A stretch of 64,000 bases of DNA. It comes from Verrucomicrobiia bacterium. GTDB taxonomy: Bacteria; Verrucomicrobiota; Verrucomicrobiia; Limisphaerales; UBA11358. The first letter of the stretch is position 1. Each line of letters starts with the position of its first letter. The notes below the pieces were generated by a model. That model had not been told where the DNA came from, made no database searches, and was given only the letters and a program-made list of their open reading frames with translations. A program made the translations under genes and the position numbers. Positions 2,667-14,263 of the stretch are shown here, piece by piece. Location of the stretch: assembly GCA_036510395.1 (NCBI GenBank), contig DATCDZ010000152.1, positions 4,325 to 68,324 of the forward strand, read 5' to 3'.

Positions 2667-4136
2667 TTATTGTGAAACCGACAGCACGTTGCCTTCATTG
2701 TCCAAGTTGATGTTTCCATATCTGACGCCGGTGACCGAATCCAGCCAGTCGGCAAAGGTGTAATCGTAAGTTGAGCGCGTGCTTGGCTGCGCGAATTGGT
2801 TGACAATCGGGCTTAATCCAAGCAAAACATCCCAACCGTCGGACAAACCGTCGCCGCTGGTGTTATAGACGTTCGGATCGGATTTTGAAACCAGCAGTTC
2901 GTAAGCATCTGTCAATCCGTCGCCGTCTGAATCTTTAGGCGTCCCTAGAATCAGGAAACACGCCGTGCTTGGCAGGTTTGTCAGGGTATAGATGTTTCCG
3001 TGGTAGCCCTGTCCCATCCACGCCCAAGGCATTCCGGTTGGGCCGAATGACAGGACTGAATTTGCAAAGACATCATACGGCACGCCGTCGGAGCCTCCCT
3101 GAATTGTGAACGTCATCGCCATTCCGCCGTTGGTAACGCTGGTGGTGACATTTGTAATCCAAATATTGGTGCTGGTGATGGCGGAAACCGAGCCGACAAG
3201 CTGCAAGCCGCCCTGTCCGGTGATGGCGTCATAATAGGTCGGCGAACCGGACGGATTTGAAGGTTCGGAAACGATGTTTTCCATCGCCGTGTTCCAAGGA
3301 TTGATCTCGTAATAGGTGTAATACCAGTCAAAAATGGTTTGAACATCGTTGGAACTCAGCGGGTAATTGTAGGTGGCCACGGTGTTGAACATCCCGTGAG
3401 CCTGATTGGTTCCACTGCTCGAACTGCCAATCCAGAACCCGTTGGCCAGAACATCGGGGCCGGGATAAACCGTCACTCCGGGGCCGTTGGTGGCCAGCAC
3501 GCCGTCCAGATACAAGGCCGTATTCGTCGGCGAATATGTCAGCGCAACAAAATGGAAATAGTTGGTCGTCCATGAAATCGGGGCGGAAAGGTAGGTCGTG
3601 ATGCTGTCAGACAAGTCGTTGGTCTGTGCGGCAAAATAAATGTTGTTTCCGCCTTCATCCACAAAAATACTCCACCAGCCATAGCTGTTATCATCCGTGT
3701 AGCTGCCGACTTCAATCAGGCGTCCGTATTGGCCCAGTCCCGTTCCGCCCGCATTCGTGCTCGACCAGGATGATGGCGCGAACCAAAAAGTAACGGTGCC
3801 TGAATCAACCGTCAGGTTTGTGGTTCCGTCATTTTCATAGACGTTATATTGCAACCAAGCCGGGACATTGGTGTCCACGACGAGGGATGAGCCGTTGCCA
3901 AGATGTGAGTAGTTTAGGTTGGTGAACGAAACCGGCGCGTAGCCGGCGTCGCTTGTCCAGTTGGTACTGTCATAAAATGACCACGAATCCAGCGGCGCGT
4001 TTGTCGGCCCATATCCACCGCCGCCGGATGGCGGCACTTGTGCATGAGCCGTCCCTGCCAGAGAATAGAGCAGCATTGCAGGGATGATCAGCCGGATTAA
4101 CTGATAGTTCAATTTAATGTGATTAACAGTTTTCAT
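2667..4136 (-). CDS. Secreted LamG/ConA-like lectin-domain protein with C-terminal Asp-rich (TSP3-like) repeats
   Basis: 489-aa ORF with an N-terminal hydrophobic signal (LIIPAMLLYSLAGTAHA). LamG-like pattern: GTVTFWFAPSSW...YFHFVALTYSPTNTALYLDGVL...GFWIGS. C-terminal DSDGDGLTDAYE and SGDGLSDGWD repeats. It stops 18 nt upstream of the start of feature 1 on the same strand. Confidence 0.75.
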   Translation of the reverse strand: MKTVNHIKLNYQLIRLIIPAMLLYSLAGTAHAQVPPSGGGGYGPTNAPLDSWSFYDSTNWTSDAGYAPVSFTNLNYSHLGNGSSLVVDTNVPAWLQYNVYENDGTTNLTVDSGTVTFWFAPSSWSSTNAGGTGLGQYGRLIEVGSYTDDNSYGWWSIFVDEGGNNIYFAAQTNDLSDSITTYLSAPISWTTNYFHFVALTYSPTNTALYLDGVLATNGPGVTVYPGPDVLANGFWIGSSSSGTNQAHGMFNTVATYNYPLSSNDVQTIFDWYYTYYEINPWNTAMENIVSEPSNPSGSPTYYDAITGQGGLQLVGSVSAITSTNIWITNVTTSVTNGGMAMTFTIQGGSDGVPYDVFANSVLSFGPTGMPWAWMGQGYHGNIYTLTNLPSTACFLILGTPKDSDGDGLTDAYELLVSKSDPNVYNTSGDGLSDGWDVLLGLSPIVNQFAQPSTRSTYDYTFADWLDSVTGVRYGNINLDNEGNVLSVSQ

Positions 4137-4302
4137 AGATTACCTTTTGGAAGTTGGCTCCCCTTTTGCACCCGCAGCGTGGCTGGATTCGCCAGATTCA
4201 TCTGACCATAAAATCTTGCAACATGAGTCCCCGTTGAGTCCAGAGGTTTTCTGTGACTTTGAGGAAACATTTACCCGACAATTATTATAGCAATGTATCC
4301 CG

Positions 4303-4581
4303 TTGTCAATCATCTTTCCCCATGAGTTCAAAATTCGCGTCTGGCACGCTTCGGGGGTGGCGAAAAAAACACTCCAGTTCAACATCCGCATGTCCGAGGA
4401 ACAGCGCACGGAATTGGAAGCCATGTGCCGCCGCCGCCGCCGTCCGTTGAGCTTCCAAGTGGAACATCTGATTGCCTTGGCTAAACTGCTCATTGAATTT
4501 TGCGATGGCAACGATGATCTGGAAATTGCGCGTGAACGGCTGGCCGCTGCCAAAAAGCGTTTGCCAAAAAAGGGCAGTTGA
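4303..4581 (+). CDS. Ribbon-helix-helix (CopG/MobC-like) DNA-binding protein; probable true start GTG 4357
   Basis: KKTLQFNIRMSEEQRTELEAMCRRRRRPLSFQVEHLIALA fits the strand-helix-helix pattern of RHH proteins. The competing antisense ORF 4140-4658 has no recognisable features. Confidence 0.45.
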   Translation: MSIIFPHEFKIRVWHASGVAKKTLQFNIRMSEEQRTELEAMCRRRRRPLSFQVEHLIALAKLLIEFCDGNDDLEIARERLAAAKKRLPKKGS

Positions 4582-4654
4582 ATCGCAACTGAAACATTTC
4601 GCCCACACCTTTCTAAAAAGTGCGCTTCCCGATTAAATTGTTGGAATAGGTTGG

Positions 4655-5077
4655 TCATGCCGTTGCGGTTTCTTCGACGAGGGAAAGAATGCGGGAAAGG
4701 AAATCCTGCGTGTCAAATGGCTTCTCAATGAAATCCGCTGCACCAAGGTCAAGGCCACGCTGCTGATTTTCAATACTGGCATTTCCGGCCACAAATACAA
4801 TTGGTGTTTCCGCGAGGCGGGGGATTTGCCTCAAACGCGTGAACAGGTCGAACCCACTGCTGCCGGGCATTTCAAGGTCAAGGGTGATTAAATCGAACAC
4901 TTGCGTTTGAGCCAGACGCAAAGCTTTTTCGGCATCCAAAGCTCCTTGTGTTTCGCAACCGGCTCGTGTCAGCAGAAATCGCATCATCGTCACCACGGCC
5001 ATTTGGTCGTCCACCACCAGAATTTTCGCTTTAGCTGTCATAAACCCGTGTCGTGAAGATTTGTTATCAGTTTTCAA
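4655..5077 (-). CDS. Stand-alone CheY-like receiver-domain response regulator
   Basis: KILVVDD...FDLITLDLEMPGSSG...PIVFVAG...ADFIEKPF. The probable start is ATG at 5041 (MTAKAKILVVDD). Confidence 0.85.
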   Translation of the reverse strand: MKTDNKSSRHGFMTAKAKILVVDDQMAVVTMMRFLLTRAGCETQGALDAEKALRLAQTQVFDLITLDLEMPGSSGFDLFTRLRQIPRLAETPIVFVAGNASIENQQRGLDLGAADFIEKPFDTQDFLSRILSLVEETATA

Positions 5078-5143
5078 ATCGAAGTCAACACTGTTCTCTT
5101 AAAAGAACAGAAGTTTCCGGCACTGACCTAGCCTTTAATCTGG

Positions 5144-5449
5144 ATGACTGCTCCGCTCAATCTCGTCGGCCCCCAGGTGCGGCGATTTCGCATCAAGAAA
5201 CATTGCACGCAGGAAGCACTGGCGGCCAAGCTGCAAGTCGAGGGCTGGGATGTCAGCCGCGAATCGCTGGCCAAGCTGGAATCGCAATTCCGCCGGGTGC
5301 CGGATTGCGAATTGCTGTTTCTGGCCAAAGTTCTCGGTGTCGAGGTCATGGATTTATTTCCGGCCAAACCGGATTTGAAAAAACTCGACCCGGCGTTGCG
5401 CCTGAAAGTGTCCACCAAATTTCCCCGCCGCAAGTCCCGCCGTTCGTAG
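5144..5449 (+). CDS. XRE-family helix-turn-helix transcriptional regulator
   Basis: VGPQVRRFRIKKHCTQEALAAKLQVEGWDVSRESLAKLESQFRRVPDCELLFLAKVLGVEVMDLF is a typical HTH_3/Cro-C1 pattern. Confidence 0.8.
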   Translation: MTAPLNLVGPQVRRFRIKKHCTQEALAAKLQVEGWDVSRESLAKLESQFRRVPDCELLFLAKVLGVEVMDLFPAKPDLKKLDPALRLKVSTKFPRRKSRRS

Positions 5450-5519
5450 GCGATGATTTTCTGGGTTCCGATTTCTTCCTGTTTCCCCCCCGCGCTCATT
5501 TGGCTGGCGCGGCTGCGCT

Positions 5520-5543
5520 CCTGAAAACAAGAGTGTTTTCAGG
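5520..5543. terminator. Hairpin between convergent genes (possible bidirectional terminator)
   Basis: Perfect 9-bp stem CCTGAAAAC / GTTTTCAGG with a 6-nt loop, lying between the 5449 stop (+) and the 5580 stop (-). No U-tract. Confidence 0.35.
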
Positions 5544-5579
5544 AACCTTGGATTCGCTTGGGGAAAGGGATGCGGCAAA

Positions 5580-6548
5580 CTATTTTGCCGGGTTGTTGGT
5601 GGCTTGCGCCTGATTTTCACCGTCCGGAAGCAAGTGCCGGATTTGTTTTTGGGAGACGCTGCTGCGAAAGAAAATACAGCCATTATTTTGTCCGTTGACC
5701 TGACGCATATCAGCGGCGTAAGCGCCTTCAATCACCAGCACAAATCCCGGTGGACTGGCAAAGCTGTCATTTTGCGTCGGCAACACTTTGATGGGAATTT
5801 GGGCAACGGCCAGCATGTGAAACGCCACCTGATTGAATTGCATGACCTGCGCCATGTCATCAATTTGGATGGCCATTTTGCGGTCGTAGCGGGCGGCAAG
5901 CTCCAAACTAATCAGGCAGGCAATGAGAAGAGCCGCCCCCATGCTCCAAAAAAAACTGGTGGTCCAAGCGGTTTTCCAAATTCGTTTCGTCCATTCGGAC
6001 TTGGCTTCATCGGCGGCATCCTGAATTTTCTCCAGCGTTGGCATGACCTTCCAAGCCAGATCGTTTGTATGCTGCACGAACGGCGCGATGATTTTCTGGT
6101 TGATGCCGGATTGAATCGAGTTTTGAATCCCCTGCACGATGGCCTTGGTGTCCACCTGTGCGCCAAGATTTTTCATCGTCAATTCAATGGCCGCAATGGT
6201 TTCATCGCATTTTTCTTGGGTTGCGCGGCAAAGCTCGTCGGTCTTTTCGGCGTGATCCGTGATGTTGGCATCGCGGGTTTCAATCGTTTTGGCGAGCAAA
6301 CTAACTTCGTCGCGCAGTTCCTGAAAGGTCGCCAGCGAATCGGCGTTGGCCGAAATCATCCGGGCGGGGATGCGTTCGGCGTAATGGGCATACACGTCCA
6401 GCACGAGAAAAAGCTGGCTAAAAAACTGCGTGCTGTCGCCGTCGGCGAAGCGATAATAAACCGCCCGCGCCAGCTCCCGCTTTTCAGCGGGATAGGCGGC
6501 AAGCATTTCTTCAAACAATTCGGATTCGGGCATAACATCTCCTTTCAA
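5580..6548 (-). CDS. Hypothetical coiled-coil protein with one central TM segment (third gene of the ParA-like operon)
   Basis: 322-aa ORF whose start overlaps the upstream stop by 4 nt. The N-terminal half is helical and acidic; the hydrophobic segment is TTSFFWSMGAALLIACLISL. I recognise no family. Confidence 0.6.
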   Translation of the reverse strand: MKGDVMPESELFEEMLAAYPAEKRELARAVYYRFADGDSTQFFSQLFLVLDVYAHYAERIPARMISANADSLATFQELRDEVSLLAKTIETRDANITDHAEKTDELCRATQEKCDETIAAIELTMKNLGAQVDTKAIVQGIQNSIQSGINQKIIAPFVQHTNDLAWKVMPTLEKIQDAADEAKSEWTKRIWKTAWTTSFFWSMGAALLIACLISLELAARYDRKMAIQIDDMAQVMQFNQVAFHMLAVAQIPIKVLPTQNDSFASPPGFVLVIEGAYAADMRQVNGQNNGCIFFRSSVSQKQIRHLLPDGENQAQATNNPAK

Positions 6549-7372
6549 TTCGTGAGATTCACTTTCGCGCCGCGCTTGGCTGAAAATGGTTCGCCGATGG
6601 GCGGCGCGGTTTTAGGTTTGATGGTGGCCGCTTCAACGGCGGGCAACAGCTTGGCGGCAATCTGGTCGTATTGATTGAACATGGTGGCGAGCCAGTCCTG
6701 CAACACGCCCCGCGCCATGATGTCGAGGCCGAGCGAGTCGTTGCCGATGGCTTCATTGAACGGGATGCCGCGCTGATGGTCGGCCTCTAACTTCGCCAGC
6801 CGAAGCTTCACAAATTCCGACAGCACCGGCACGGTGATGGTCACTGCACCGCAGTCGAGCAATTCCTTTTCCATCGGGCTGTTGTCAAACATTCTGGTTT
6901 TGGATGCCCGCGCCGGATTACGGACAATGACATAATCCACCTGCCTGCCGCAGAACTGGCAGACGGCGGCAAGATTGGTCATCACGTCCAAGTCATCGAA
7001 TGGAAACACCATGAGCGTGATGCCGATGTTCTGCGTGGCGGCGATGTCAAAGAAATGCGTGGCCGATAACGCCTTCATCAGTTGCGCGTCCAGATGCGCC
7101 CGTGGGTCAATCAGGGTGACGGGTTGGGCGGTCGTCTTTCGCAGAATCAAAATGAGTTCGTCCAAGTCTTCGGCCTGGCCGTTTAGCGGTATGAGTTTGA
7201 CCTGGCCGGGGAATAATCGGGACAGAGTGCGGTTGTCGCCGTCCAGATCAAATCCCTGCCACGGGAGGCCACGTTGGTTAAGCCAGCACGCGCGGGCGGT
7301 GGCTTCGATGCTTTTGCCCATGTTACCTTTGGCCTGCATGGGCAGAATCAGGCGATGTTTTATAGTTTTCAT
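6545..7372 (-). CDS. ParA/MinD-superfamily P-loop ATPase (plasmid TraL/MobD-like)
   Basis: Deviant Walker A near the N-terminus (PMQAKGNMGKS), a size of 275 aa, and 4-nt overlaps with both neighbouring genes. Confidence 0.65.
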   Translation of the reverse strand: MKTIKHRLILPMQAKGNMGKSIEATARACWLNQRGLPWQGFDLDGDNRTLSRLFPGQVKLIPLNGQAEDLDELILILRKTTAQPVTLIDPRAHLDAQLMKALSATHFFDIAATQNIGITLMVFPFDDLDVMTNLAAVCQFCGRQVDYVIVRNPARASKTRMFDNSPMEKELLDCGAVTITVPVLSEFVKLRLAKLEADHQRGIPFNEAIGNDSLGLDIMARGVLQDWLATMFNQYDQIAAKLLPAVEAATIKPKTAPPIGEPFSAKRGAKVNLTN

Positions 7373-7716
7373 ATTGGGAGGTTATTGAACTGATATGGAT
7401 TATCTGTTTTGGTTGTTGTTGTTGCTGCCTGCGCCGGCGTCGGTGCCGATGCAGATGGATTCACCGTGTCCGGCTGTGCCGTCACCGCTTCGTTTTCCCA
7501 ATGAGACTGCGCCTGACGTTTCAGGTAGCGCCGGTAGAACTGGTGCAATCCCTGAAACGTGATGACGCAATCCTTTTCGGTGCGCAGCCGGGCGGCGATT
7601 TCCTGCCACGTTCGGCGCTGCTGGCGTTGCTCGCGGATAAACTCCGCGAACGCTTCGAGGCGGCTGCGATAAGCGCGTCCGCCGCCACGCCGTTTAATTT
7701 TGATTTCCGAATCCAT
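7369..7716 (-). CDS. Small basic putative DNA-binding protein (first gene of the operon divergent from the relaxase operon)
   Basis: 115 aa. The Arg-rich N-terminus RRGGGRAYRSRLEAFAEFIREQRQQRRTWQEIAARL is HTH-like. It sits next to the GTTGAA iteron array. Confidence 0.5.
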   Translation of the reverse strand: MDSEIKIKRRGGGRAYRSRLEAFAEFIREQRQQRRTWQEIAARLRTEKDCVITFQGLHQFYRRYLKRQAQSHWENEAVTAQPDTVNPSASAPTPAQAATTTTKTDNPYQFNNLPI

Positions 7717-7750
7717 TCGCCACCAGTTTAGGCCAGCCGATGGCGGTTGC

Positions 7751-7795
7751 GTTAGCGAGTAGTGGGCGGGTTAAGCAGGAAAGTGGGCGAGTTAA
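7751..7795 (-). promoter_or_regulatory. Element-specific conserved box (full copy 7751-7773 plus half copy 7782-7795) upstream of the 7716 operon
   Basis: Read in the gene direction: TTAACTCGCCCACT-n7-TTAACCCGCCCACTACTCGCTAAC, ending 34 nt before the ATG. The 23-nt core is identical to 14060-14082 and near-identical to 9631-9649. Confidence 0.55.
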
Positions 7796-7815
7796 ACGCG
7801 ATAGCGTTTTTACCT

Positions 7816-7916
7816 GTTGAAAGGCGTTGAATCGCCGGGTTGAAACCGGTTGAACGGTGTTGAACCGTGACGTTGAAAGGTGTTGAATCGCGTTGAATTC
7901 ATCAACGCTTTTCAAC
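7816..7916. repeat. Iteron array: 8 direct GTTGAA repeats plus inverted copies
   Basis: GTTGAA starts at 7816, 7826, 7839, 7849, 7859, 7872, 7882 and 7892 (spacing 10/13/10/10/13/10/10 nt). TTCAAC follows at 7911, with a GTTGAT-type inverted variant at 7902-7907. The sub-repeat GTTGAAAGG(C/T)GTTGAATCGC occurs twice. Confidence 0.85.
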
Positions 7917-8230
7917 GCAATTTTTCATGGCGTCCGGCGCGCAACCGAGAACCTACGATTTTTCGTAGGGGTGGGGCGTCCACCTTTTAAGCTGACGAAT
8001 AGGAAGCTAAACAATTGATTAAATACCGGGCGATTAGCGTTGAATCGGAATGTTGCAAATGAATTACCACCATGATGAATTTCAGTCGGATGCAACTGAA
8101 ACGGATGATTTAGGAATCACGTTTGGGAAAGATTGAACCGGCATACGTTTCAAAACCGATGATAATTTCTTAACGGGAATTGGTGATGAAAATTCAACCC
8201 GTATATCAGCATTGATTACCGTCAGCACTG

Positions 8231-8301
8231 AATGGCCGTTTCAGAAACCGGAGCGAAACGAAACGGATGAGCAGAGGAGCGCGGTTTTTGAAACGGCCAT
8301 T
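8231..8301. repeat. 20-bp inverted repeat (19/20 match) with a 31-nt spacer
   Basis: AATGGCCGTTTCAGAAACCG (8231-8250) pairs with CGGTTTTTGAAACGGCCATT (8282-8301). Confidence 0.8.
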
Positions 8302-8332
8302 GAGTGCGTCACCGGATAGGTTTGAATCACGC

Positions 8333-8408
8333 GGCGTTTAGTCTGTCCGGTTTCCGAGAGCCGCAGGAAAGCCGAACAGTCTAAACGCCGTTGCCGCATA
8401 TTGTGGAT
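8333..8408 (+). other. Candidate oriT core: imperfect hairpin followed by a nic-like GCATATTGTGGAT
   Basis: GGCGTTTAGTCTGT (8333-8346) pairs with ACAGTCTAAACGCC (8376-8389) at 13/14 positions. GCATATTGTGGAT lies 6 nt downstream (8396-8408). As I recall, the R388/TrwC nic region is GGTGCGTATTGTCT/AT just 3' of a hairpin. The resemblance is weak. Confidence 0.3.
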
Positions 8409-8464
8409 TGTGTTTCAGAGCGATTCTGAATTCAAAAATTCAGGCAGGCTCGCCGATGGGTTAC

Positions 8465-8943
8465 GGGAAAGGATGGGGCAAGCGGTGACTGAATTCTGCC
8501 GGAAATCCAAGCCAAAAGCCTTTTTCATTTTGTTCCAAAATGGAACGAAGCTGCCCAGGCAATCTGGAAAAATACTGCCAATGGTGACATTCGTTTTTGC
8601 AAAGTTTGCAGGAGCGGAGCCGGTTGTTCCGCGAGAATGTCAGCCGAAAAAATAAACCAACGTGACGCATGAAAAATAAATCCGAAAAATGGCGGCAGAC
8701 TGGCCGATGGTTTTTGGGGAAAGGACGGAGCCATGAACGGCCAAATTCCGCCGGGAATGAATGCCGCAAGTGCTTTTCACTTTGTTTCATTTTGAAACAA
8801 TTACCACTGCCTGTTCTGCCAGAATGGTTCCATGAATTTATATTTCGACCAAGTTGCGGGAAAGGATTGGGTCAGGCGGTCGTTGAATTCCGCCGTGAAT
8901 CCAGACCGGAAAAAAAATTCATTTTGTTCATGGGGTGAACAAA
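8465..8943 (+). repeat. Three dispersed ~85-nt U-repeats (8465-8546, 8717-8800, 8858-8943), each ending in a hairpin
   Basis: Shared skeleton: GGGAAAGGA..GG...AATTC.GCCG.GAAT...TTTCA.TTTGTT-hairpin. The terminal hairpins are GTTCC-aaaat-GGAAC, (TT)GTTTC-atttt-GAAAC(AA) and (TTT)GTTCA-tgggg-TGAAC(AAA). Confidence 0.8.
8608..8710 (+). repeat. V-repeat copy 1 (paralogue of the leader and first codons of the 9183 gene)
   Basis: GCAGGAGCGGAGCCGGTTGTTCCGCGAGAATGTCAGCCGAAAAAATAAACC..GTGACGCATGAAAAATAAA...CTGGCCGATGG aligns with 9117-9222. It contains the hairpin GCGGA-n9-TCCGC followed by a GAGAAT -10-like hexamer. Confidence 0.75.
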
Positions 8944-9116
8944 GCGGCTTCGCCAATCCGATAAGATGCCGCCAAATAACAGCCATGAAAAATGACAGCC
9001 AAAAAAATCATTGTGGCAAAAGTGGTGGCTTCATCCTGTGTGTTTTCCGCACTGGATCGCCCGCAAACTCTGCCAAAGTGGGAGCCGTTGGGAAAATTCG
9101 AGTTGTGCAATGGGCT

Positions 9117-9222
9117 GCACAAGCGGAGCCGGAATTTCCGCTAGAATGTCTGCCGGAAACATAAATAAACCGTAGGTGACGTATGAATAATGAAGCGCCA
9201 AACAACCTCGCTGGCCGGATGG
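9117..9222 (+). repeat. V-repeat copy 2 = probable promoter/leader and 5' end of the 9183 gene
   Basis: GCACAAGCGGAGCCGGAATTTCCGCTAGAATGTCTGCCGGAAACATAAATAAACC..GTGACGTATGAATAATGAA...CTGGCCGGATGG. It has the same GCGGA-n9-TCCGC hairpin and a TAGAAT hexamer. Confidence 0.75.
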
Positions 9223-9605
9223 AAAAAGAGATTCGCGTCAAGCCTGGAAAAAATAAAGAAGCAGCAGAACAGCGAGCCAGTGCCGTTTATGTGCTCAACA
9301 ACGAACTCAAGGCGATCTTGAATCTGAACCGGCCACCGGCGCGTTTGAACACGGCGCAGACCGCCGCCTACCTCGGCTTCAAACCGCATGACATCCCGGT
9401 GCTGGCCGCGCGGGGATTCCTCAAGCCGTTGGGCGACCCGATGCCCAACAGCGATAAATACTATGCGCGGGCAAGGGTGCTGGAACGGTTGGACGATGAG
9501 GAATGGCTGTCACTGGCAACAGCGGCCTTGAGCCAGCATTGGCAGAAGAAAAACGCCAGCAAAACCAAAAAGCGGAATGGTCATGCCCGGCCAGTTAAAA
9601 AATGA
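9183..9605 (+). CDS. Helix-turn-helix (excisionase/MerR-like) protein, putative relaxosome accessory factor
   Basis: LNTAQTAAYLGFKPHDIPVLAARGFLKPLG resembles excisionase-family HTH_17 proteins. It lies immediately upstream of the relaxase on the same strand and has a basic C-terminal tail. Confidence 0.6.
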   Translation: MNNEAPNNLAGRMEKEIRVKPGKNKEAAEQRASAVYVLNNELKAILNLNRPPARLNTAQTAAYLGFKPHDIPVLAARGFLKPLGDPMPNSDKYYARARVLERLDDEEWLSLATAALSQHWQKKNASKTKKRNGHARPVKK

Positions 9606-9630
9606 ACTATTCGGTTTAACCACGACCAAC

Positions 9631-9649
9631 TCGCCCACTACCCGCTAAC
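9631..9649 (+). promoter_or_regulatory. Element-specific conserved box upstream of the relaxase gene
   Basis: TCGCCCACTACCCGCTAAC ends 33 nt before ATG 9683. It has the same orientation relative to its gene as the copies at 7751 and 14060. A degenerate upstream half-site is TTAACCACGACC. Confidence 0.55.
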
Positions 9650-9682
9650 GCGGGAAATGCGTTTTGATTTACGCTGGCGGCC

Positions 9683-12649
9683 ATGCTTGCACCGAAAGCC
9701 CAATACAACCCGGTTGACGCCAAAAAGTATTTCAAGGAACACCTGGCGGTCGGCGATTATTATGCCGAGGGGCAGACCGTTCCCGGCCAATGGATCGGCA
9801 AGGACGCGGAAGATTTGGGCTTGTCCGGCGTAACCACCACCGATGAGTTTGTCCGGCTCTGCGACAATCTCCATCCGCAAACCGGCGAACGGCTGACACT
9901 CCGGCAAAAAACCACGCGGATTGAAAAGGGGATTGATGGCGAAGAACGGCAAGCCGCCAATCGCCGGGTTTTTTACGATTTCACTTTTTCCCCGCCCAAA
10001 TCGGTTTCCATTGCCGCGCTGGTCGGCAACGACGCTCGGATTGTCGAGGCGCATGAGCAGGCCGTGACGGTGGCCATGCACCAGTTGCAAACCTTCGCGG
10101 CAACGCGCGTGCGGAAAAACGATGAATGCACGGACCGGCATACAGGCAACCTCGTGGCCGCGATGTTCCGGCATGACACCTCGCGCGCTTTAGACCCGCA
10201 TCTGCATACGCATTGCATCGTGTTCAACGCCACGTTTGACGCGGTGGAAAAGCAATGGAAGGCATTGCAGAACCATGAAATGTTCGCCGCGCAAAAATTT
10301 GTCGAGAATGTTTATTACCATGAACTCACGCGCGAAATGGTGAAGTGCGGCTATCAGATTGAAAACAAACCGCGCGGCGATTTTGAAATCAAGGGCGTCG
10401 CGTCGGAACTGATTGACAGGTTTTCCAAGCGGCACCGGGAGATTGACCGGAAAACCAGGGAACTGCTGGCGCGTGAACCGGAAAAGGCGGGCGACAACAT
10501 TGCGGCGATTCGGGAGAACATCGCGCACAAGGACCGGCCACGGAAAATCCGGGACATCGGTTTGGAAAAATTGCAAACGCTGTGGGACGGCCAGATGACA
10601 GCGGGCGAAAGGGCTTCGCTGGATGGGCTGACGGTGAAGCCGTCCGTCGCGCCCGTTTCCAGCGAGAAGATTTGCGAGCAGGCCGTGACGTGGGCGGAGC
10701 AACACCTGTTTGAACGTCATTCCATCGTCCATGAGCATGAACTGTGGCGGCACGCGCTGGAACGCGTCAGAGGGCAGGACGTTTTACTGGCGGACATTCA
10801 GGCCGTCACTCAAAAACGCGGCTATCTGCACTTCGACGAGCATCCCGGCAAGGTTTCCACGCGGGAGCATCTTGAACGTGAAATGGAAATTGTCCAGAAG
10901 GCCAAAGAGGGGATTGGCGAATGTCATCCGCTGGTCTGGCAACCGAAGCCCTTCAATCCCATGTTGGATGGGGAACAGCGCGAAGCCCTCGCCGCGCTGG
11001 TTTCCAATCGTAACCGGGTCGCGGTCTTTCGTGGCGGTGCCGGCACGGGCAAAAGTTTCGTGCTGCGCGAGCTGGTCGGGCAAATCCGCGACGGCGGGCG
11101 CGGCGTAGTCGTCCTCGCGCCGCAACGCCAGCAAGTGCTGGACATGGAACGGGACGGCTTTCCGTCGCCGCTGACGGTTGCCAGTTTTCTGCAAAAGAAA
11201 GAACTCCAAGAGGGAACGGTGGTGATCGTGGACGAGGCCGGGCAGATTGGGGGCAAGCCGATGTTGGAACTGCTCCGGCTGGTTTCTGAACGCAATGCGC
11301 GGCTGATTTTGTCGGGGGACACGCGCCAGCATGGGGCGGTTGAGGCGGGGGACGCGCTGCGGGCGATTGAAAAACATTCCGGCGTCTCGCCAGTGGAATT
11401 GACCAACATCCGCCGCCAGAATCCGGCGCTGGCGAAGTCAATCGAGGAGCGCAAGCATATCAAGGAATACCGTCAGGCCGTCGAGGCAGCGCGTGACGGC
11501 AAGTTCGCGGAATCGTTTGCACGGCTGGACAAATTGAAAGCGATTGAGTCCTGCACGCTGGCCGACAAGCATGAAAAGCTGACGGCGCGTTATCTGCAAC
11601 TGGTGAAAGATCATCAGTCCACCGTGGTCGTCTCGCAAAGCTGGAATGAGATTCACCAGGTCAACGACGCGATTCGTGTTGCGCTTAAAAATGAAAAGCT
11701 CGTCGGCGAAGCGGAAACCACGGTCACGGCATTTCAGCCGGTGGATTTGACGGAAGCGCAAAAGCGCGATGTCCGTTCTTATGATGCCAATACGGTGCTG
11801 GTGTTCAATCGTGACGTGCGCGGGTTCAAGGCCGGTGAATCGGCGCGGTTGAAATTGATTACCGACACGCATTTGCTGGTGGAAACGGACACGCGCATCG
11901 TCCCCATTTCCTTCAAGCAGTTGGACAAGCTGACGGCCTGCCAGCGCAAGGAATTGGCTTTGGCCGCTGGCGACAAGCTGCAACTCAAGGCGAATGGCCG
12001 CAGCGTGGAAAACCGCAAGCTGGTCAACGGCGAACTGGTCACGGTCAAGGCGGTCCAGCCTGACGGCCGCATTGCACTGGCGGATGGCAGGGTCTTGGAT
12101 AAAAACTTCCGGCAGTTCGTCCGGGGCTACGCCATCACGTCCTATGCGTCACAAGGCAAGTCGGTGGAACACGTTTTGTTTTCGGATTCGGCGGCGAAGG
12201 CCGCGACGAACCAGCAGCAATGGTATGTCACGATTTCGCGCGGCAAAAAGGGGATTCATATTTTCACCACGGACAAGGAGCAGTTGCGGGAGAACATCAC
12301 GCGCAGCGGGGATCGCCCATCGGTGGTGGATGTGCTGATGGCACATTACCGGAAACATGATTCGTTTTTTCGCATGATTGAACGGAGTTGGGGAACGCGG
12401 CTGGCGCTCACCATGACCAACAGCAAACGCGCCAGAGAATTTCGCGCGCTGCGCCAGCGGCAAAACCAAAGTCAGGCGCAAGCGCAAACTGAAACGATCA
12501 AGCAAACGGTTGAATCCAATGAGCCGCGCCAGCAACCCGTCCAGCCACCGGCGCAAAGCCACATGGCTGAAACCACGGAGCCGAAAATCAAGCCGCACCT
12601 GATTTTCCCGGAAGTCCCGAAAAAACAGTCGCGCGGTTACAGGCCGTGA
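9683..12649 (+). CDS. MobF-family relaxase (TrwC/TraI-like) fused to a RecD-like helicase
   Basis: N-terminus: DAKKYFKEHLAVGDYYAEG...GQWIGKDAEDLGLSG. Histidine triad: HDTSRALDPHLHTHCIVFNATF. Walker A: FRGGAGTGKS, with LILSGDTRQHGAVEAG. C-terminal helicase motif: ITSYASQGKSVEHVL...YVTISRGKKGIHIFT. Confidence 0.9.
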   Translation: MLAPKAQYNPVDAKKYFKEHLAVGDYYAEGQTVPGQWIGKDAEDLGLSGVTTTDEFVRLCDNLHPQTGERLTLRQKTTRIEKGIDGEERQAANRRVFYDFTFSPPKSVSIAALVGNDARIVEAHEQAVTVAMHQLQTFAATRVRKNDECTDRHTGNLVAAMFRHDTSRALDPHLHTHCIVFNATFDAVEKQWKALQNHEMFAAQKFVENVYYHELTREMVKCGYQIENKPRGDFEIKGVASELIDRFSKRHREIDRKTRELLAREPEKAGDNIAAIRENIAHKDRPRKIRDIGLEKLQTLWDGQMTAGERASLDGLTVKPSVAPVSSEKICEQAVTWAEQHLFERHSIVHEHELWRHALERVRGQDVLLADIQAVTQKRGYLHFDEHPGKVSTREHLEREMEIVQKAKEGIGECHPLVWQPKPFNPMLDGEQREALAALVSNRNRVAVFRGGAGTGKSFVLRELVGQIRDGGRGVVVLAPQRQQVLDMERDGFPSPLTVASFLQKKELQEGTVVIVDEAGQIGGKPMLELLRLVSERNARLILSGDTRQHGAVEAGDALRAIEKHSGVSPVELTNIRRQNPALAKSIEERKHIKEYRQAVEAARDGKFAESFARLDKLKAIESCTLADKHEKLTARYLQLVKDHQSTVVVSQSWNEIHQVNDAIRVALKNEKLVGEAETTVTAFQPVDLTEAQKRDVRSYDANTVLVFNRDVRGFKAGESARLKLITDTHLLVETDTRIVPISFKQLDKLTACQRKELALAAGDKLQLKANGRSVENRKLVNGELVTVKAVQPDGRIALADGRVLDKNFRQFVRGYAITSYASQGKSVEHVLFSDSAAKAATNQQQWYVTISRGKKGIHIFTTDKEQLRENITRSGDRPSVVDVLMAHYRKHDSFFRMIERSWGTRLALTMTNSKRAREFRALRQRQNQSQAQAQTETIKQTVESNEPRQQPVQPPAQSHMAETTEPKIKPHLIFPEVPKKQSRGYRP

Positions 12650-12656
12650 ACGGCGG

Positions 12657-12950
12657 TCAGTCCAGCGGGTAATCGTCGTGGTCATAATAGTCCGGCGGTT
12701 CCCACAACGGCGGGGCAAACGGTGGTGGTGGTGGCGTTCCCGGCAATTGAATGAAAATCGCTGGCCGGACGTGGGACATGGGTTTTCCTCTCTTTGGTCG
12801 CAATGCGCCGCATAATACCCACACCAAAAGAGCCAGCAAAAGATAGATGGCTCCGATGAGAAAATAGAGCGCATGGTCGTGAACGAATCCGTCAAGGTGT
12901 TTCAATCCCGACGTTTCCAGTTCGAGTGCCTTAATTTGCCAAGGTTGCAT
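12657..12950 (-). CDS. Small membrane protein with a Pro-rich acidic tail (hypothetical)
   Basis: Preferred start is ATG 12950, preceded by GGAGGA (12955-12960) directly after the integrase stop. TM segment: YFLIGAIYLLLALLVWVLCGAL. Tail: PPPPPFAPPLWEPPDYYDHDDYPLD. The track start at 13007 would overlap the integrase. Confidence 0.5.
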   Translation of the reverse strand: MQPWQIKALELETSGLKHLDGFVHDHALYFLIGAIYLLLALLVWVLCGALRPKRGKPMSHVRPAIFIQLPGTPPPPPFAPPLWEPPDYYDHDDYPLD

Positions 12951-12960
12951 GGTGTCCTCC

Positions 12961-14034
12961 TTATGCGGCAACGGCTTTCGCCGCTGGTTCGGGGTTGTGG
13001 CTTCCAATAATCACCTTCTGTTGCCGCTCGTATTCGCTCAAGGAAGGCATTTCCACCGGCGCTTTGCGGGAATAGGCCCGCGTCATGGCCTTGCTGTTGT
13101 GGCCAAGATTCACCTGGGCATACCGTTCGGGATAGCCCGCCGTTTTTGCCCGTTCTGCCCACGCGTAACGGTAGCTGTGCAGCGAGACGCCTTTGATGCC
13201 AAGTCCATCGCAGCGTTGTTTGAACTCCGTGGCGCGGTCACCAGAGCGCACGGTTCGCATATATGGAAACAAGGGGCCGCTCCCCGGCAAGTCGCGCAGG
13301 ATTTCCGCCATGTCTTCATCAAAACGCATGATGGCAATCGAGCCGGTCTTCTGGCGCGCATAGCTGATGACGTGGTGTTCCCAATCAACGTCCTCGGCGT
13401 TCAAGCCCGCCAGATCGGATTGCGATGCGCCCAAGTGCCACGCCAGTTTGTAGAACGCCTTGCGTTCGGGATTGTTCTCGCGGGCGACGATGGCCAGATG
13501 TTCCGCCAGCGTGATGCCGCGCTTCTCTTTGAACTCGACGGCGGGCCACTGGCGTTTCGGCACCAGCGGCCACGGCAGCCAGTTCATGTCCACGCAGAAA
13601 TTGTGCAACCGCCGGAGATAAACATTCGTCGAGACGGTTCCCATTTGCAGGACTTTCAGAATCGCTTCGCCCTTGCTTTCGATGATGACCTGCGGCAAGA
13701 GCATCGCCAGTGCCTTGTCCTTCGCGGCGGTTTTCCAGCGATGTTGATTCGCTCCCTGCTTGGTGCCAATCAACGACTCAATGGCGTTCTGCCATGTCCG
13801 CGTGGTCAAGCCCGTGTCCGAACCGGCCAGATACGCCTTGGCGATTTGCAGGTTAAGAACGGGCTGGCGTTCGGAGTTGTTCTTGGCCGCGACAACCTGC
13901 TTGGCATCGTCCTCATTGGCCGTGCCGAGACTGGTGCGCTTGCCGGTGCTGGTGTCCACGCAATAAAACTTATTGCCCCGGATACCACGACGAATTAAGC
14001 GATAACGTGTTTTCATAGTATTACGCAATCGCAA
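12961..14034 (-). CDS. int: Tyrosine recombinase / phage-type integrase
   Basis: C-terminal catalytic region: GVSLHSYRYAWAERA...NLGHNSKAMTRAYSR. The likely true start is ATG 14016 (MKTRYRLIRRG), since 14034 is a TTG. It lies 155 nt from the tRNA-Cys 3' end. Confidence 0.9.
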   Translation of the reverse strand: MRLRNTMKTRYRLIRRGIRGNKFYCVDTSTGKRTSLGTANEDDAKQVVAAKNNSERQPVLNLQIAKAYLAGSDTGLTTRTWQNAIESLIGTKQGANQHRWKTAAKDKALAMLLPQVIIESKGEAILKVLQMGTVSTNVYLRRLHNFCVDMNWLPWPLVPKRQWPAVEFKEKRGITLAEHLAIVARENNPERKAFYKLAWHLGASQSDLAGLNAEDVDWEHHVISYARQKTGSIAIMRFDEDMAEILRDLPGSGPLFPYMRTVRSGDRATEFKQRCDGLGIKGVSLHSYRYAWAERAKTAGYPERYAQVNLGHNSKAMTRAYSRKAPVEMPSLSEYERQQKVIIGSHNPEPAAKAVAA

Positions 14035-14059
14035 GAATAACTGAAGCCGGTTCCGCAGA

Positions 14060-14082
14060 GTTAGCGAGTAGTGGGCGGGTTA
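14060..14082 (-). promoter_or_regulatory. Element-specific conserved box upstream of the integrase
   Basis: GTTAGCGAGTAGTGGGCGGGTTA is identical over 23 nt to 7751-7773. In the gene direction it is TAACCCGCCCACTACTCGCTAAC, ending 43 nt before ATG 14016. Confidence 0.55.
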
Positions 14083-14188
14083 GTGCCGGTTACGCTAGAT
14101 TCTAACGGAGTAGATAAACTGGTGTCCGTTCTGGTGTCCTTTGACACCCTCGCACCTCTTAAACCATTGCTGCAATAACAGTTAGGAA

Positions 14189-14263
14189 TGGAGGCGGGAG
14201 TCGGAATCGAACCGACGAATGCAGCTTTTGCAGAGCCGTGCCTTACCACTTGGCTACCCCGCC
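14189..14263 (-). tRNA. tRNA-Cys (anticodon GCA), CCA encoded
   Basis: The reverse complement GGCGGGGTAGCCAAGTGGTAAGGCACGGCTCTGCAAAAGCTGCATTCGTCGGTTCGATTCCGACTCCCGCCTCCA folds by hand into a cloverleaf. It has a 7-bp acceptor stem, anticodon loop CUGCAAA and T-arm GTCGG-TTCGATT-CCGAC. Confidence 0.93.

Follow-up and report, generated by a model that had tools for sequence, protein, structure and literature searches.

The DNA analysed here, referred to as the window, comprises 64,000 nt from an uncultured Verrucomicrobiia bacterium of peat or soil (Limisphaerales; UBA11358; assembly GCA_036510395.1, contig DATCDZ010000152.1, positions 4,325–68,324 of the forward strand). In its left part, a tyrosine integrase gene adjoins the 3′ end of a tRNA-Cys(GCA) gene, accompanied by a gene for a MobF relaxase-helicase, a large non-coding region, a divergent three-gene operon, regulatory genes and a toxin operon (Table 1), all of which belong to one integrative element. 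The tRNA-Cys gene is the only tRNA gene found by ARAGORN in the window, and an Rfam scan of the first 16 kb detected nothing beyond it. A first-pass annotation had marked positions 4303–14263 as a mobilizable element targeted to this tRNA gene. The target was recognised correctly, but the marked span covers only about half of the element, which at 19,651 bp is about twice as long. Related loci retrieved from public assemblies and metagenomes are designated by L-numbers; L017 is the locus on contig k141_436363, a twin of the contig studied here.

Table 1. Features of the tRNA-Cys element. Positions refer to the window unless L017 is named; aa, amino acids; TM, transmembrane; att, attachment site; oriT, origin of transfer.
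Feature	Position	Strand	Basis or remark
tRNA-Cys(GCA), intact, integration target	14189–14263	-	ARAGORN; Rfam RF00005, 62.7 bits
att core at tRNA end, CGATTCCGACTCCCGCCTCCA, final 21 nt of the tRNA	14189–14209	-	Breakpoint of homology between copies with different flanks
Integrase-proximal arm-type repeats, two direct and one inverted GGACACC	14119–14149	-	Read from the sequence
23-nt box, copy 1, sense TAACCCGCCCACTACTCGCTAAC	14060–14082	-	Upstream of integrase; exact repeat of 7751–7773
Tyrosine integrase, 351 aa (357 aa from TTG at 14034)	12961–14016 (ATG) or 12961–14034 (TTG)	-	Pfam Phage_integrase, 1e-9
Small membrane protein, 97–116 aa	12657–12950	-	Follows the integrase in the family (gene calls of L002, L005–L012)
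MobF (TrwC-type) relaxase with superfamily 1B (SF1B) helicase, 988 aa	9683–12649	+	Pfam TrwC, AAA_30; NCBIfam MobF
23-nt box, copy 3, three mismatches	9627–9649	+	33 nt upstream of relaxase ATG
140-aa basic protein, isoelectric point (pI) 10.1	9183–9605	+	Directly upstream of the relaxase gene
Three degenerate repeats of about 250 nt, resembling promoter and leader of the 140-aa gene	8434–9182	+	69 % mean column identity
oriT candidate	8225–8413	+	Two long hairpins and nic-like motif
Iteron array GTTGAA, 8 direct and 2 inverted, 10–13 bp spacing	7812–7920		Upstream of 115-aa gene; comparable to R388 stbDRs
23-nt box, copy 2	7751–7773	-	34 nt upstream of 115-aa gene; half-copy at 7782–7802
115-aa basic protein, pI 10.1 (N-terminal 75 aa, pI 10.8)	7369–7716	-	Positional analog of StbA/TraK
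275-aa ParA/MinD-like P-loop ATPase, Walker A KGNMGKS	6545–7372	-	Positional analog of StbB/TraL/MobD
317-aa orphan (322-aa longer form), third leader gene	5580–6533	-	StbC/TraM position; long helices, one TM segment (about residues 192–213), conserved C-terminal region
XRE-type helix-turn-helix (HTH) regulator	5144–5449	+	Pfam HTH_3, 3.8e-5; position kept in the family
Stand-alone receiver (REC) protein	4655–5077	-	Pfam Response_reg, 1.5e-26; position kept in the family
Small basic open reading frame (ORF), 92 aa, ribbon-helix-helix (RHH)-like by eye only	4303–4581	+	Conservation of frame
LamG/TSP3 protein, secreted; encoded first in the toxin operon (cargo)	2667–4136	-	Pfam Laminin_G_3, 3.1e-13
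Transglutaminase-RHS polymorphic toxin, N-terminal 882 of 1960 aa in window	1–2648	-	Full gene at L017 11489–17371
Distal core, CGATTCCGACCCTCGCCTCCA	About -5442 to -5462, off-window (L017 19579–19599)	tRNA orientation	21-nt core copy, two mismatches

Exact-protein look-ups led to two ENA contigs with the same DNA (100 % and 99.987 % identity). One of them, k141_436363, is 99.987 % identical to the window across 15.9 kb and, as found by a look-up with the LamG protein, provides 7.3 kb to the left of it. Within the window, no other repeat of the tRNA region of ≥12 nt is present, in agreement with the first-pass annotation, which had looked in vain for a leftward copy of the tRNA 3′ segment, considered that the left end might lie off-window beyond the RHS/LamG operon, and proposed a search for a second copy (attL). 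The twin contig contains this copy, a 21-nt sequence with two mismatches, about 5.45 kb beyond the start of the window (as read on this 99.99 %-identical contig); no comparable match arose in 100 shuffles of the L017 locus. The element is thus bounded by direct repeats, the distal one being located outside the window, and its length of 19,651 bp is the distance between the two cores on the single contig k141_436363.

The 21-mer was identified as the att core because nearly identical elements in different surroundings begin to match exactly there. Over 19 kb, L005 is 99.7 % identical to L007, and L011 and L010 stand in a similar relation; in both pairs the left flanks differ and homology starts at the last 21 nt of tRNA-Cys, CGATTCCGAC..CGCCTCCA. 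On the integrase side, neither mtnA nor the tRNA gene is present in L005 and L011, although their elements are those of L007 and L010. At the distal end, the order of genes behind the RHS gene in L017 is two small TM proteins, d70b (70 aa), d202 (202 aa) and d114 (114 aa), followed by three copies of CGGACACCA and the core. A metagenome scan with d202 yielded 39 loci, at least 12 of which extend to the distal junction and carry the arrangement d70b-d202-d114-arms-core. These share the distal arm up to ...GGGGATAAATGG and the core, and then continue into at least six unrelated right flanks, which include four kinds of other integrase elements with arm repeats of their own and one flank encoding a tetratricopeptide repeat protein without an integrase. 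Because homology breaks at both cores and the arm repeats are paired, both boundaries can be placed within a few bases. The several insertion contexts contradict the notion of one 19.65-kb block with identical flanks in all relatives, and since the left end lies beyond the RHS gene, the LamG/RHS operon is cargo carried within the element.

With CCCT in place of TCCC, the two mismatches render the distal core of L017 the same as the tRNA-Cys 3′ end in other species of Limisphaerales, as seen by comparison with the tRNA-Cys genes of L013, L027, L044, L090 and L091. Overall, the distal ends show three core variants, each equal to some tRNA-Cys 3′ end among the related loci, which would be compatible with elements retaining the sequence of a previous host. 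In L115, L116, L117 and L119, about 200 nt past d114, the same distal arm joins another tRNA-like 3′ end (TTCGAGCCCTTCCTCTGGAGCCA) instead of the tRNA-Cys core, and in L119 this junction is followed by a truncated integrase N-terminus and by genes for an extracytoplasmic function (ECF) sigma factor and an anti-sigma factor. This arrangement suggests that a second att site at a tRNA gene was used or took part in recombination.

The distance of 155 nt between integrase and tRNA-Cys 3′ end, as given by the first-pass annotation, holds for the TTG start and becomes 173 nt with the ATG start; the latter version is called in public assemblies, and the exact protein occurs on two ENA contigs. Alignment with XerA (4A8E) indicated that the HxxR and LGH...Y motifs are retained, including the catalytic tyrosine. 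Four copies of CGGACACCA are present in 21.5 kb, one next to the proximal core (about 14120–14128) and three next to the distal core, as compared to about 0.2 expected by chance; the proximal copy is accompanied by a second AGGACACCA and an inverted copy. Such repeats, limited to the two ends, are the classic picture of integrase arm sites, and we regard them as putative sites of this type. The small membrane protein encoded next to the integrase gene has no Pfam match, and its tblastn matches adjoin integrases in many loci.

The first-pass designation of the 988-aa protein as a MobF relaxase-helicase was confirmed by hidden Markov model (HMM) searches. The protein matches Pfam TrwC (2.8e-85, 286.8 bits), AAA_30 (2.8e-38), AAA_19 and Viral_helicase1, and scores 237.7 bits against NCBIfam NF041492 (MobF; cutoff 100). 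It shares 29 % identity with TrwC of plasmid R388 over 954 aa (E 1e-80), the helicase region being aligned as well. The HxDx..HxH motif is retained, with FRHDTSRALDPHLHTH aligning to the histidine motif of TrwC, and Y16 and Y26 align with both tyrosine positions near the TrwC N-terminus. The protein thus combines an N-terminal HUH domain with three histidines and two tyrosines and a C-terminal RecD-like SF1B helicase, as is characteristic of the MOBF family. The gene preceding it had been described as an HTH gene; a gene coding for a 140-aa protein is indeed located there, but no HTH or other match was found in Pfam, NCBIfam, PHROGs or PDB profiles. Its paralog is d114 next to the distal att site (L017 19093–19437; 38 % identity, E 3e-24). 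By analogy, the 140-aa gene would occupy the slot of a relaxosome accessory factor such as TrwA.

The three genes of the leader operon, coding for proteins of 115, 275 and 317 aa, are located on the minus strand next to the oriT region and are divergent from the 140-aa and relaxase genes on the plus strand, the same order as in R388 and in a plasmid of Tolypothrix with a relaxase of the MOBP type. All three genes of the divergent operon proposed in the first-pass annotation are present; the ParA-type assignment of the middle one is less firm, since its Pfam match to CbiA (E 0.0026) stays under the threshold. The positional equivalent in the distant element L049, however, passes CbiA at 7e-9. 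Plasmid matches of the 275-aa protein in tblastn searches were confined to cyanobacterial proteins annotated as ParA-like or "similar to MobD" (24–27 % identity, E to 2e-7), which occupy the same operon position and adjoin relaxase genes. In the Tolypothrix plasmid, a small-protein/ATPase/DUF6753 operon is divergent from mobC, the relaxase gene and the gene of a type IV coupling protein (T4CP). The 317-aa protein was compared with DUF6753, encoded by the third gene of the Tolypothrix operon, and shows no similarity to it. For the 317-aa protein, as already stated for its 322-aa form in the first-pass annotation, no family could be named from Pfam, NCBIfam, PHROGs or PDB profiles; its 548 homologues (clusters) are all annotated as hypothetical and all belong to Verrucomicrobiota/Limisphaerales, and only 106 clusters at 50 % identity occur among 1.84 billion representatives. 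More generally, searches of Pfam, NCBIfam, PHROGs and PDB with the 115-, 140-, 275- and 317-aa proteins, d70b, d202 and d114 (single sequences, and profiles for two families) produced nothing meaningful except the weak CbiA match.

The non-coding region between the leader operon and the 140-aa gene (7717–9182) measures 1466 nt, close to the earlier estimate of 1.45 kb, and contains no convincing gene; scans of it for sigma-70 promoters and terminators gave nothing above chance. Folded as single-stranded DNA, positions 8215–8420 form two long hairpins (-51.8 kcal/mol, z = -7.3), the first with arms of 26 nt (8225–8250/8282–8307) and the second with arms of 22 nt (8332–8353/8369–8390). Hairpin 2 is followed by TTGCCGCATATTGTGG|ATTG (8391–8410), resembling the IR2-nic sequence GCGTATTGTCT|ATAG of R388; the R388 nic sequence occurs with full (100 %) identity in IncW plasmids, where it separates trwA from stbA. 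Hairpin 2 and the motif (T/C)ATTGTGGAT (YATTGTGGAT) are kept in L007, L010 and L061, and the sequence just 3′ of them diverges. We tentatively place oriT and its nic site at the conserved hairpin with 22-bp arms (8332–8390) plus YATTGTGG|AT, as a candidate suggested by these resemblances that may well prove wrong. The collinearity of L011 with the window ends almost exactly at the predicted nic site (about 8405), no more than a few bases away, and is followed by about 1 kb of different DNA including a gene for a 301-aa protein, which might reflect relaxase-mediated recombination at oriT or be a coincidence. Of the degenerate repeats preceding the 140-aa gene, the 55-nt blocks 8607–8661 and 9116–9170 are 80 % identical. 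Each repeat ends with a start-like ATGAA(A/T)AAT, and only the last one runs into a gene.

A 23-nt box (GTTAGCGAGTAGTGGGCGGGTTA or its complement) occurs three times in the window, with none expected by chance, at 25–45 nt upstream of the integrase, 115-aa and relaxase genes and in the same orientation relative to each gene. The box is kept at the same three places in L005–L012. Position, orientation and conservation favour a shared operator or promoter element, which it probably is, and disfavour a role as att site. Its presence at the integrase, relaxase and leader promoters suggests a single regulator that might switch all three.

As the first-pass annotation had stated for 4.1–14.2 kb, no genes of a conjugation apparatus were recognised. 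Pfam searches for VirB4, VirD4 and pilus families gave no match in any ORF of the 19.65-kb element, and among the large ORFs of the remaining window, which are housekeeping genes, there is no type IV secretion system (T4SS) or T4CP gene. A tblastn search with R388 TrwB and cyanobacterial T4CP queries found no T4CP in 142 loci totalling 1.89 Mb, and the relatives, including the distant L049 and L027, contain no T4SS remnants. Dependence on a helper is thus the default assumption for this element.

The XRE, receiver and RHH-like genes had been listed as cargo. The XRE and receiver domains are clear, whereas the RHH fold of the small basic ORF was not confirmed, the ORF having no match in Pfam or PHROGs. 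Since the genes for the XRE regulator, the receiver and the small basic protein (RHH-like or XRE) occupy constant positions in the tRNA-Cys element family, they are more likely regulators of the element itself than cargo. In L013–L016, the plus-strand 92-aa frame is conserved at 96 % amino acid identity, as compared to 82 % for a 172-aa frame called in public records on the opposite strand (4140–4658, -), and this public call is probably wrong. The 1960-aa toxin has a Sec signal, RHS_repeat matches in nine stretches (3.1e-46) and a Transglut_core domain (5.5e-6). In relatives, the toxin slot contains SpvB/TcdB-RHS fusions of 2119–2168 aa, and where elements are otherwise the same, only the toxin C-terminus and the part behind it vary. 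To judge from the genes, the operon thus has the make-up of an RHS polymorphic toxin, with an RHS shell, a variable C-terminal end and small downstream genes, the small membrane proteins being presumed immunity factors. A homologue search with the N-terminal part encoded in the window did not return the exact protein. In L104 and L105, LamG and transglutaminase-RHS operons close to the cargo are found in chromosomal surroundings beside mfd and rpoD-like genes, and L104 has a transposase-RHS fusion and a primase/integrase island nearby. Since such operons also occur in ordinary chromosomal contexts, the module was captured rather than invented by the element. P0127, an RHS protein related to the cargo toxin, shows an odd combination in that it has a precomputed match to PF12696, which we take to be the TraG/TraD C-terminal domain of coupling proteins.

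Past the distal core, the twin contig enters a second element of the same family (L017 19761–21125), with an integrase paralog and the same small TM gene. The integrase gene of this neighbour is frameshifted just before the catalytic tyrosine codon, and its arm repeats differ (GTGCCAGC). Such a tandem is consistent with site-specific accretion, which has been reviewed for integrative and mobilizable elements (IMEs; PMC5704250). Since the left flank of L005 carries GTGCCAGC arm repeats like those of the second element type, L005 is most readily explained as an element located downstream in an array of this kind.

To follow the integration site across species, 80 species-representative genomes were retrieved through mtnA, with about 10 kb in view per locus. 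An integrase of the family directly follows mtnA-tRNA-Cys in 38 of them, and 11 show a MobF relaxase within the 10 kb in view. The content downstream of tRNA-Cys is varied and never syntenic, so that gene order next to tRNA-Cys is not the same in all relatives, and this occupancy with varied content marks the site as a hotspot. In these loci, a second core was not found within 10 kb. In all related loci inspected, the gene order from the integrase through LamG to the giant RHS/SpvB-TcdB toxin gene is conserved, and the backbone genes are intact and 74–95 % conserved across hundreds of contigs. L049, a distant tRNA-Cys element with a relaxase of 55 % identity, has the same layout and its own GTCCAC iterons, likewise without a T4CP. 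The tRNA-Cys element family is widespread in Limisphaerales. Several records of metagenome-assembled genomes titled "Bifidobacteriaceae" or "Bifidobacterium" ("binchicken" co-assemblies; L023, L026, L036, L041, L044 and others), and one each titled "Akkermansia muciniphila" and "Methylacidimicrobium fagopyrum", contain mtnA-tRNA-Cys loci that are 80–87 % identical to the window; these organism labels look unreliable.

The element has a recombinase at one end, bounding direct repeats, its own relaxase (with oriT as a candidate only) and no complete mating-pair-formation system, the features by which IMEs are recognised. Gene content, att repeats, exact boundaries, several insertion contexts, relaxase motifs and the lack of recognisable T4SS genes together make it, with good probability, a 19,651-bp IME in the tRNA-Cys 3′ end that carries a MobF relaxase, a Stb/TraKLM-like leader operon and RHS-toxin cargo, and that lies in tandem with a decaying relative. 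From these features we infer how excision, nicking, binding partners and a helper might act together. The tyrosine integrase would recombine the 21-bp core identical to the tRNA 3′ end, probably assisted by the arm-type sites CGGACACCA at both ends, and a small factor encoded near the distal att (d114 and/or d70b) probably directs excision to a circle with the predicted attP junction ...GCGGGGATAAATGG-CGATTCCGAC(N)CGCCTCCA-TTCCTAACTGTTATTGCAGC. Acting on the circle or on the integrated form, the relaxase-helicase, probably together with the 140-aa protein, would nick oriT in the 1.47-kb intergenic region. The leader operon might work like StbABC of R388 or TraKLM of plasmid RP4, with the 115-aa protein binding the GTTGAA iterons and the ParA-like ATPase positioning or delivering the relaxosome. 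Since the element has no coupling protein or mating-pair-formation genes, it would have to rely on the T4SS and T4CP of a conjugative element present in the same cell. One regulator would act on the 23-nt box at the three promoters, with XRE and receiver proteins as candidate inputs. Both helper dependence and shared regulation through the box are plausible.

Several observations weigh against this interpretation or parts of it. The distal att site is absent from the window and was taken from a near-identical contig of another sample, and an excised-circle junction was not found. Among the 80 mtnA loci there is no clean empty tRNA-Cys site in close relatives, so that the comparison with empty sites proposed in the first-pass annotation yielded nothing usable; five of the 80 loci have tRNA-Cys without integrase and were rejected as empty sites, their downstream genes having no synteny to each other or to anything else. 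The integrase has serine at the Arg-I position of XerA (GASQSDL, residues about 195–205), and the tandem paralog shows the same GASQSD. IntDOT of Bacteroides likewise has serine in place of Arg-I, and integrases of the IntDOT type are functional without this arginine. The candidate nic motif is directed at the relaxase operon, opposite to R388, and a nic-like motif in L049, considered as independent support, turned out to be one of the GTCCAC iterons of that element. The 115-aa protein has no significant similarity to R388 StbA and no match to a curated family (Pfam, NCBIfam) or to PDB; homology of the first leader gene to StbA/TraK was thus not detected, StbA being poorly conserved even among known systems (PMC3098194). 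Likewise, the 275-aa protein matched no NCBIfam model, including that of StbB, and BLASTP against R388 StbB was not significant. AlphaFold2 models of the 275-aa protein (single sequence) and the 317-aa protein (25-sequence alignment) reached a predicted local distance difference test score of 40 and 45, respectively, too poor to use. Finally, a helper T4SS was not identified in these bacteria. Given the results for the 115- and 275-aa proteins, the likeness of the transfer module to RP4 and R388 consists in gene order and motifs, not in detectable sequence homology of these proteins, and the claim is that the operon works like Stb systems, not that it is a member of them.

The missing T4SS and T4CP, the lack of an empty site, the frameshifted integrase of the tandem neighbour and the absence of Arg-I could also be explained by a decayed, immobile remnant of an integrative and conjugative element or integrated plasmid which lost its T4SS and is inherited vertically beside tRNA-Cys. 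Decay is difficult to reconcile, however, with backbone genes that are all intact and conserved in hundreds of contigs, with nearly identical copies in different flanks starting exactly at the core, with distal ends joined to at least six different sequences, and with the retention of the arm repeats and both cores; moreover, no relative, L049 and L027 included, shows a trace of a T4SS. We therefore consider such a remnant improbable. We think equally little of the idea that the ParA-like operon and the iterons mainly serve partition or maintenance of an excised rolling-circle episome that spreads by a route other than a borrowed T4SS. Its appeal lies in the some ten phased iterons, which look like a centromere, in the helicase domain of the relaxase, in the lack of a known helper in the lineage, and in R388, where StbA and stbDRs act in segregation (PMC3098194). 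Yet the element has no Rep gene and is integrated in every long contig, the same type of operon adjoins relaxase and T4CP genes in mobilizable plasmids, and R388 StbB is required for conjugation, not for stability (PMC3098194).

The two outer copies of the 23-nt box form an exact direct repeat 6309 bp apart (7751/14060), with no such repeat expected by chance, and might be taken as the true att sites of a 6.3-kb element comprising integrase, relaxase and non-coding region, with the leader operon and everything leftward being chromosomal. This can hardly be maintained: there is a third, inverted copy upstream of the relaxase gene, all three copies precede start codons at similar distance and in the same relative orientation and are conserved in relatives, and homology between copies in different surroundings extends across both repeats, starting at the tRNA core and reaching past the RHS gene. 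Within the preferred reading, an IME bounded by the tRNA-Cys cores, a more elaborate "one-switch" version is conceivable, albeit unlikely. Here the 23-nt box would be the common operator, XRE and a receiver phosphorylated by a host kinase would trigger excision and transfer, and the borrowed machine would be an undescribed conjugation system of Limisphaerales. In a still bolder form, these genomes may contain no T4SS helper at all and the element may spread by another route.

To our knowledge, the mobile elements of Verrucomicrobiota, a phylum abundant in peat and soil, are almost undescribed, and no description of an IME from this phylum came up in literature searches. The element is of an ordinary kind in a little-studied phylum and overturns no concept. 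Its family provides a precisely bounded, widespread example, with a tRNA-Cys hotspot in 38 of 80 species-representative genomes, and places the MOBF relaxase and Stb-type module of proteobacterial plasmids, minus the coupling protein, on integrative elements of a distant phylum. Elements of this kind would carry large RHS/Tc-like toxin operons from one species to another, and the att core, arm sites, iterons, hairpins and 23-nt box are testable cis-elements for genetic tools or conjugation assays.

The first-pass annotation had likened the layout to RP4. The synteny stands: Guynet et al. 2011 (PMC3098194) treat stbABC of R388, traK-L-M of RP4 and the mob genes of pTF-FC2 (MobD) as syntenic operons of three genes that lie beside oriT in the leading region. 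It is not backed by homology at the sequence level for the 115- and 275-aa proteins, and R388, whose relaxase is likewise of the MOBF type, makes the closer comparison. In operons of the Stb type, the middle gene encodes an ATPase with a deviant Walker A motif and the third gene an orphan; TraK of RP4 is a StbA homolog, and TraL of RP4 and MobD of pTF-FC2 are among the StbB-like proteins (PMC3098194). R388 (IncW, MOBF11) has a relaxase of the same family, and its layout trwC-trwB-trwA | oriT | stbA-stbB-stbC recurs in the element, where trwB is missing. The promoter of stbA carries two sets of five phased 9-bp repeats to which StbA binds (PMC3098194), and the GTTGAA array similarly consists of phased direct repeats near the promoter of a small gene; the oriT candidate also resembles R388 in that a hairpin is followed by a (T/C)ATTGT-type motif. 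Unlike R388, the element is integrative, lacks both the coupling protein and a T4SS, has an accessory 140-aa protein that is not recognisably TrwA-like, and has an intergenic region of 1.47 kb, as compared to 0.45 kb, with the candidate nic reversed. RP4 (IncP; traJ-traI | oriT | traK-traL-traM) and the IncQ-like pTF-FC2 share the three-gene leader operon next to oriT, and the Walker A sequence KGNMGKS fits the KGGxxGK[ST]-type group of TraL/MobD, whereas the relaxase of the element is MOBF rather than MOBP and no similarity to TraK or TraM was found. With IMEs integrated in tRNA genes, such as NBU1 of Bacteroides, the element has in common a tyrosine integrase, insertion into a tRNA 3′ end with a short direct repeat, a relaxase of its own along with an oriT (here a candidate), and the lack of a T4SS (PMC5704250; bioRxiv 10.64898/2026.01.13.699239), and the decayed neighbour has its counterpart in tandem accretions of IMEs and cis-mobilizable elements (PMC5704250). 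The relaxase families that a 2017 review lists in a footnote to its table of characterised IMEs do not include MobF with a helicase (PMC5704250). From IMEs such as NBU1 the element is further set apart by its host phylum, Verrucomicrobiota (Limisphaerales), by its Stb-like operon, and by its RHS toxin cargo.

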